IMG/VR virus record: IMGVR_UViG_3300021376_000029
Span: 21,289 to 85,288 of that record
Reading direction: 5' to 3' (one strand)
DNA: 64,000 bases
Origin: a virus
Part shown: positions 60,239 to 60,433 of the stretch, in pieces
Layout of the letters: each line of letters begins with the position of its first letter
Position numbering within the stretch: the stretch's first letter is position 1
Program-made: the position numbers and the translations under genes
Notes under the pieces: generated by a model
What the model was told of the DNA's origin: nothing
The model's input: only the letters and a program-made list of their open reading frames with translations
Databases searched by the model: none

Positions 60239-60330
60239 GGGGGTGGGAGTAATTGTGAAGATTTTATACAAGAGCTTGACAAATCGGTACACTGCGGGCT
60301 TAGATGACTATAAGATCCTCCATTATAAAG

Positions 60331-60374
60331 TTTTCCACAGGTTTTTCCACAGTTTCCACAGACCTTGTGGAAAA
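60331..60374. repeat. Cluster of four DnaA-box-like 9-mers (TTTTCCACA type)
   Basis: TTTTCCACA at 60331 and 60343, GTTTCCACA at 60352, reverse TGTGGAAAA at 60366. Confidence 0.7.
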
Positions 60375-60409
60375 CTCTACCATATTTTAATTAACATTTA
60401 ATTTATGAT

Positions 60410-60433
60410 TAAAGGGGGACATATAAGTCCCCA
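60410..60433 (-). terminator. Probable terminator hairpin
   Basis: GGGGAC-TTATAT-GTCCCC followed by CTTT, after the 60442 stop. Confidence 0.55.

Follow-up and report, generated by a model that had tools for sequence, protein, structure and literature searches.

A conserved cluster of perfect host-type DnaA boxes with a DARS-like layout in a T4-like cyanophage

Phages of the T4 type are the textbook example of viruses that replicate without the initiator of their host, and to our knowledge no replication origin has been mapped in the highly abundant marine cyanomyoviruses. In T4, oriF and oriG each combine a promoter with an AT-rich unwinding element, the origins share no motif and each is dispensable, and a T4-type replisome loads its own helicase and does not require DnaA (PMC3016281). 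The sequence TTTTCCACA has been called the 'species-specific' DnaA box of cyanobacteria, and domain IV of Cyanothece DnaA binds such tandem boxes in vitro, as observed by EMSA (PMC4674748). The box/DnaA-trio unit (BUS) comprises a box or a pair of boxes, a spacer of at most 16 bp, and at least three NAN trios with an AT-rich region on the ACA side (PMC8287927). The core of a DARS is defined by boxes I and II in opposite orientation with a 5-bp space, boxes II and III in the same direction and a box II of full consensus (PMC6868365), and the box cluster of the ColE1 origin was the first DARS found (PMC5835720). A full-text literature search on DnaA boxes or DnaA-related origins in cyanophages found no relevant paper.

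The window analysed here is a stretch of 64,000 nt, bases 21289-85288 of an 85-kb IMG/VR virus record (IMGVR_UViG_3300021376_000029) estimated to be 46% complete. Matches to T4-type baseplate wedge proteins (phrog_438, E 1.5e-165; phrog_219, E 1.9e-184) and a small-gene region syntenic with Kyanoviridae (S-PM2, Syn1 and S-CAM1) bear out the T4-like identity assigned in an initial sequence-only reading of this DNA. The minus strand carries all genes around the box array, and in the direction of these genes the order is tRNA-Met, 84-aa ORF, hairpin, AT tract, four boxes, opposite-strand block, promoters P1 and P2, non-coding DNA and tRNA-Leu (Table 1). An Rfam search returned the two tRNAs only, with no match at the box array. 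A GC-rich island at 56000-57600 (57-60% GC against about 35% around it) contains small ORFs on the minus strand, with matches to phage families of unknown function (phrog_7365, phrog_871 and phrog_649).

Table 1 Features of the box array and its surroundings, in positions of the window
Feature	Position	Strand	Remarks
tRNA-Met	60814-60742	-	First in gene direction
84-aa ORF	60696-60442	-	After tRNA-Met
Hairpin GGGGAC/GTCCCC, then CTTTAAT, short T-run	60415-60432 (with T-run 60432-60405)	-	Terminator-like end of 84-aa ORF
AT-rich element CATATTTTAATTAACATTTAATTTATGATT...	60381-60413		Related to conserved element CTATGTTTTTTWAAMCATTTA abutting boxes in relatives
DnaA box I, TGTGGAAAA on plus strand	60366-60374	-	Perfect TTTTCCACA on minus strand; faces the other boxes over a 5-bp gap
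DnaA box GTTTCCACA	60352-60360	+	8/9; abuts box 60343-60351 with no gap; partner of box I in face-to-face pair
DnaA box, perfect TTTTCCACA	60343-60351	+	9/9 consensus match
DnaA box 1, perfect TTTTCCACA	60331-60339	+	3-bp gap to next box (12-bp period); flanks AG...G as at 58631-58642
Promoter-like site TGGAAA-16-TATAAT	60349-60322	-	10/12; over the boxes
Conserved block: TTGACA (60276-60281), 18 nt, TTAGAT (60300-60305)	60276-60305	+	Antisense to all local genes
P1, perfect sigma-70 promoter TTGACA-17-TATAAT	-35 60238-60233, -10 60215-60210	-	12/12
P2, perfect sigma-70 promoter, tandem copy of P1 unit	-35 60156-60151, -10 60133-60128	-	12/12; 82 bp downstream of P1
Non-coding DNA with AGATTTCT repeats at 60025, 60086 and 60103	60015-60117		Downstream of P1/P2; iteron-like or small RNA
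tRNA-Leu	59866-59784	-	Last in gene direction
Secondary site: back-to-back pair TGTGGAATT (58620-58628), 4 bp, TTTTCCACA (58633-58641)	58613-58648	-	Hairpin, 14-bp stem, dG -16.8, z -8.1

Against the consensus TT[A/T]TNCACA (cyanobacterial TTTTCCACA; PMC4674748 and PMC6868365), the array at 60331-60374 comprises three 9/9 boxes and one 8/9 box. The four boxes in 44 bp, one of them inverted, and the AT-rich stretch beside them were thus correctly described in the sequence-only reading, and the three perfect matches to the published box agree with its assignment of these sites to the cyanobacterial type. Enrichment over chance, proposed there as a check, holds for the clustering and not for the total: none of 2000 sequences simulated for the 85-kb record with a first-order Markov model had three or more sites within 45 bp, and a Poisson estimate gives about 3e-8 for four clustered sites, whereas the 8-mer is found an ordinary 5 times in the window against 4.0 expected. 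The exact 9-mer TTTTCCACA occurs 4 times in the whole record, all inside 1.8 kb. The further box that had been pointed out at 58633 is present as a fifth exact box, within a secondary site whose hairpin stands directly after the 108-aa ORF at 58987-58661. This site and box 1 share the 12-mer AGTTTTCCACAG, and Syn1 has the same back-to-back pair about 1 kb from its main cluster.

What is new here is the layout. Judged from the order and spacing of its boxes, this array of a lytic T4-like phage is arranged like the DARS1 core of E. coli and like the cluster at the ColE1 origin. The DARS1 core, as read from the chromosome, is TTATCCACT, 5 bp, TGTGGATAA, 3 bp, TGTGTATTA, and the ColE1 origin cluster is TTATCCCCT, 5 bp, TGTGGATAA, 1 bp, TGTGTTACC. 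The minus strand of the window reads TTTTCCACA, 5 bp (aggtc), TGTGGAAAC abutting TGTGGAAAA, 3 bp, TGTGGAAAA, so that opposite boxes about 5 bp apart, as in a DARS, are found at exactly 5 bp, and the tandem boxes II/III are found with gaps of 0 and 3 bp owing to one extra box. The corresponding gaps in the triads of relatives are 4 and 3 bp in S-PM2 and in a close relative of the window, L001, and 5 and 3 bp in S-RIM32. With DARS1 and DARS2 the phage element shares three boxes, of which I and II are opposite at about 5 bp and II and III are in tandem at 3 bp, a full-consensus box II and a promoter-bearing non-coding gap as its host. It differs from them in that the phage boxes are all perfect, the window holds the extra abutting box, the carrier is a lytic cyanobacterial phage, and the modules of its relatives often lack box I. 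ColE1 is likewise a mobile replicon, with an RNA-primed origin and a face-to-face pair at a 5-bp gap with a third box near the origin. The ColE1 boxes are, however, degenerate, and DnaA there assists in loading host DnaB, a step that a T4-type replisome should be able to do without. In S-PM2-type modules, moreover, the phage triad has the mirrored orientation with respect to the candidate antisense promoter. The E. coli site datA, which acts through DnaA titration and ATP hydrolysis, resembles the array in that its strong boxes form a cluster distant from the origin and could reduce the amount of free DnaA, but datA spans about 1 kb and requires IHF, whereas the phage array covers 44 bp and has the DARS layout.

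A scan of IMG/VR found three perfect boxes in the DARS layout in 32 viral contigs, in at least 17 sequence contexts, and the mirror-image layout in 3 viral contigs, two of which also carry the DARS-type layout. Since hairpin potential is equal for the DARS layout and its mirror image, this asymmetry points to a constraint at the level of protein. In a tally of 35 instances, made up of the scan contigs and other matching loci of the comparison set, the tandem gaps were 3 bp (27) or 2 bp (8), and the face-to-face gaps 4 bp (23), 5 bp (11) or 6 bp (1). In bacterial genomes, the DARS layout of three perfect TTTTCCACA boxes was observed in at least 120 contigs; among the matches listed these were mostly Pyrinomonadaceae/Acidobacteriota and gut Clostridia, with no cyanobacterium. 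As far as box order and spacing indicate, DARS-like triads may be widespread outside Proteobacteria.

A blastn search with the 95-bp element matched 137 phage records, 102 of them cyanophage, mostly over unannotated DNA. The complete genomes of S-PM2, Syn1 and S-CAM1 each have exactly one box cluster (in S-PM2 at 19226-19266) in the same small-gene neighbourhood, where S-RIM32, S-SSM5 and P-SSM7 have one also, and L001 retains a tandem pair of boxes along with the inverted box and the AT tract. The question of whether the cluster recurs in related phages therefore has a positive answer, as a syntenic array in six named cyanophages, its module being shared by many uncultured relatives too, with selection on the box columns: across 10 loci found via the neighbouring gene, information content was 1.96 bits in the box columns and 0.59 in flanks and spacers. 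A larger module is common to about two dozen loci and consists of a minus-strand TTGACA promoter, the palindrome TGTGNCAC-N8-GTGNCACA, an oppositely oriented block TTGAC-N16-18-GCTAAGMCAACAAC (TTGAC...GCTAAG), a variable stretch, the AT element CTATGTTTTTTWAAMCATTTA and the boxes. The window, L001 and locus L129 have the AT element on the opposite side of the boxes from the other loci, with the strand unchanged, and it lies 0-12 bp from the boxes in every arrangement. In S-PM2 and in Syn1 there is one copy each of the AT element and of the TTGAC...GCTAAG block. For a comparison in which the boxes were not selected for, 80 loci were gathered via the neighbouring 108-aa gene and the block was then sought; at least two boxes lay in the next 220 bp for 11 of 19 distinct blocks, against 2.2% of random windows, and 7 of the 19 had no boxes nearby.

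The DARS layout is not kept wherever the module is. Syn1 and S-CAM1 have tandem boxes only, P-SSM7 has two boxes with a 21-bp period, and locus L296, the closest by neighbouring gene (94% identity), has four head-to-tail 9-mers without the inverted box, so that none of these four has the face-to-face pair. The array of L296 (L296:2740-2780, IMGVR_UViG_3300020578_000008) reads TTTTCCACA, ATTTCCACA, GTTTCCGCA, ATTTCCACA with no spacers and directly follows a 2OG-Fe(II)-oxygenase-like ORF; its 9-bp period is unusual for DnaA arrays. A search for a box cluster in a 100% complete relative of 174.8 kb (G006) found none. Because layouts vary, G006 is without the cluster and 7 of 19 blocks are without boxes, the module is an accessory, dispensable element of the group, and the array, which at least one complete relative does without, is no essential origin for this group. 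Single boxes numbered 8, 7 and 12 in three relatives, against 1, 2 and 0 for the reversed word. This excess was set aside as coding coincidence, 16 of 19 single boxes lying inside open frames of at least 399 nt, save for a Syn1 pair at 59749.

The non-coding DNA around the array holds further elements. The AT tract is within the 0.12% least stable 30-bp windows of the whole window and is easily melted. The conserved TTGACA block, whose poor -10 fails a consensus promoter scan, is a candidate weak promoter that would be aimed into the boxes. In relatives (e.g. L119, L120, L121 and L122) the conservation of the TTGAC-N16-18-GCTAAGMCAACAAC block far exceeds the needs of a -35 and a -10; its -10 is without the usual final T and it is single copy per genome, and it may be a weak or activator-dependent promoter or a protein site. 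A conserved stem GTGC...GCAC around it was considered and dropped, as only about 4 bp are kept and with no convincing covariation. Two consensus promoters had been placed next to the boxes. They exist as P1 and P2, but not on the strand implied, both being on the minus strand 93-200 bp off, from where they fire away from the boxes toward tRNA-Leu. Their 82-bp tandem unit fires into about 250 nt of repeat-bearing non-coding DNA before tRNA-Leu (59876-60238, minus strand) with two hairpin/T-run sites (60035-60015 and 59905-59876) and no Rfam match, a candidate, by its sequence features, for an abundant early small RNA or leader. The repeats near the array are short (AGATTTCT three times, TTTTTAAGATTTT twice), with totals not above chance; AGATTTCT was rejected as an iteron, with 5 copies in the window against 5.2 expected and its local grouping alone notable, and a search among the neighbours of the array for a Rep-like gene of an iteron replicon identified none. 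A 24-bp palindrome TGTG[AC]CAC-N8-[CG]TG[GT]CACA occurs four times, at 56439-56462, 59047-59070, 59759-59782 and 61029-61052, the four copies falling in a 4.6-kb span of the early region. Three copies stand next to the box triad of S-PM2, at 20.1-20.7 kb, and in many relatives a copy separates the divergent promoters of the module. The palindrome resembles the operator of a dimeric CRP-family-like regulator, which would act on early promoters.

The array is very probably a docking site for host DnaA. In addition to the box matches, a G stands on both sides of the phage boxes, as read for R1 and R4 in the E. coli genome, and gaps between two exact boxes in more than 117 viral contigs peak at 2-3 and 12-13 bp, that is, at one and two helical turns. 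A search for a DnaA AAA+ domain or a DnaA C-terminal domain in the record and five relatives, including three complete cultured genomes, found none; a DnaA that reads the boxes, if any, would therefore be that of the host.

The description of the boxes as oriC-like in the sequence-only reading is not supported as it stands. The box nearest to the AT tract shows its TTTT end to the tract, in the window and in S-PM2-type modules, which is the wrong geometry for a box/trio/unwinding unit; in the E. coli genome, the unwinding element was read at the ACA end of R1. Between the end of the tandem boxes at 60360 and the start of the AT tract at 60381 lie 20 bp and the inverted box, and no consistent NAN trio run was found in any frame within 16 bp of the tandem boxes of the window on the ACA side. 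As the AT tract is on the TTTT and not the ACA side, melting driven by DnaA is not supported. Compared with cyanobacterial oriC, where the boxes are dnaN-proximal (PMC4674748), the array has the identical box, tandem boxes 2-3 bp apart and an AT-rich neighbour, but it has its AT tract on the wrong side and no trio run, and it is without low-affinity sites and without a dnaN or dnaA context. In S-PM2, Syn1 and this record, the GC skew changes sign locally at a few kb from the cluster or less. GC skew was nevertheless rejected as evidence for an origin, and the cumulative GC skew check proposed earlier gave no origin signal, the minimum of the record being made by the GC-rich island at 56.0-57.6 kb.

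We rank three roles for a DnaA-bound array in the order of a cis-acting origin-like site, control of the DnaA pool and control of promoters. The first, an origin-like docking site for host DnaA that acts in cis, is our tentative preference. We infer that the perfect boxes would be occupied by three to four molecules of host DnaA, of which two would face each other as in the DARS core or ColE1, and that bound DnaA would act in cis with the AT element and with transcription from neighbouring promoters. The module may in this way mark one site, not an essential one, at which early phage replication starts, or assist the start there, with a transcript through the module and an R-loop as presumed steps. 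DnaA would serve as an anchor or roadblock and not as the DNA melter, by analogy with the promoter-plus-unwinding-element origins T4 oriF/oriG or ColE1. Consistent with this role are the matches to the cyanobacterial box with its G...G flanks, the syntenic conservation with one cluster per genome in the three complete genomes checked, the presence of boxes near 11 of 19 independently found blocks, and the single-copy AT element, among the least stable DNA of the window and always 0-12 bp from the boxes; moreover, the R-loop origin of ColE1 bears a DnaA-box cluster of the same layout. The T4 origins oriF (uvsY), oriG (34) and oriE offer the nearest comparison within the same virus class, having a promoter with a downstream AT-rich unwinding element, iterons at oriE, and a non-conserved, individually dispensable character (PMC3016281). 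They differ in that they have no DnaA boxes and use MotA-dependent promoters, whereas the candidate promoter of the phage module is weak: ahead of the AT element there is the conserved TTGACA block with its poor -10, and lineages differ in how boxes and AT element are ordered. The wrong-sided AT tract, the promoter scan that the antisense block fails, the self-sufficient T4-type replisome, the missing GC-skew signal, and the boxes missing from G006 and 7 of 19 blocks all weigh against an origin-like site.

The array may instead control the DnaA pool in trans, which we rate as only slightly less probable. It would then either strip ADP from DnaA and recharge it, as a DARS does, or act as a high-affinity sink that withdraws DnaA from the host origin as phage DNA amplifies, and phage replication would not be started by the array. 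The layout on the gene strand equals that of E. coli DARS1, with gaps of 4-5 and 3 bp in S-PM2, S-RIM32 and L001, and its excess in viral contigs over the mirror image (32 against 3) is unexplained by hairpin potential. Boxes that are all of full consensus would bind ADP- and ATP-DnaA alike, and a patchy distribution suits an accessory element for host takeover. In E. coli, additional DARS copies alter initiation and, when numerous, do harm (PMC5835720), and about 200 DnaA molecules per E. coli origin are within reach of about 100 phage genomes with 4-5 boxes each. On the other hand, Syn1, S-CAM1, L296 and P-SSM7 share the module without the face-to-face pair, and a decoy acting in trans need be neither single copy nor welded to the AT element and the conserved block. 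A single copy with four boxes titrates nothing early in infection, the DnaA ADP/ATP cycle is not established for marine cyanobacteria, and the benefit that a lytic phage would draw from recharging DnaA is hard to see. That a strictly lytic T4-like phage carries a working DARS, which catalytically recharges the host initiator or at high copy sequesters it, is judged unlikely.

Control or insulation of transcription appears less likely again. Here DnaA on the boxes would repress transcription or block RNA polymerase, tying early transcription to the DnaA status of the host, with upstream read-through, antisense transcripts from the TTGACA block or an occluded weak minus-strand promoter over the boxes as its targets. 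The array does have a terminator hairpin on one side and the region's strongest promoters on the other, DARS1 and DARS2 are in promoter regions, and DnaA autoregulates its own promoter (PMC5835720). The 10/12 promoter-like site that overlaps the boxes is, however, not conserved in L129 or S-PM2-type modules and was dropped as a promoter, P1 and P2 are distant from the boxes and aimed away from them, and the other single boxes of relatives mostly lie within ORFs (16 of 19) and not at promoters. It is improbable that the array is no DnaA site at all and that another host or phage protein reads the repeat, or that it is purely a DNA or RNA hairpin or terminator, for although the face-to-face pair can fold as a hairpin (dG about -10.5, z -4.1) and the secondary site is a strong hairpin directly after a stop codon, three boxes match the host box at 9/9 with DnaA-type flanks, the preferred gaps fit helical turns, the mirror arrangement is ten times rarer despite equal hairpin potential, tandem-only versions are unable to form the hairpin, and Rfam has no match.

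The conserved single-copy array of perfect host DnaA boxes, with the same triad in S-PM2, provides a precise place and a protein to test. Should the DARS-like layout prove functional, this would be the first known case of a viral DNA element acting on DnaA itself. A virus would then manipulate the nucleotide state or the availability of DnaA by bare DNA and not by a protein, and DARS-type control would reach far beyond E. coli and its kin, to the cyanobacteria. Whichever way this turns out, it matters for understanding how phages in the ocean couple their replication to the cell cycle of the host and to light.
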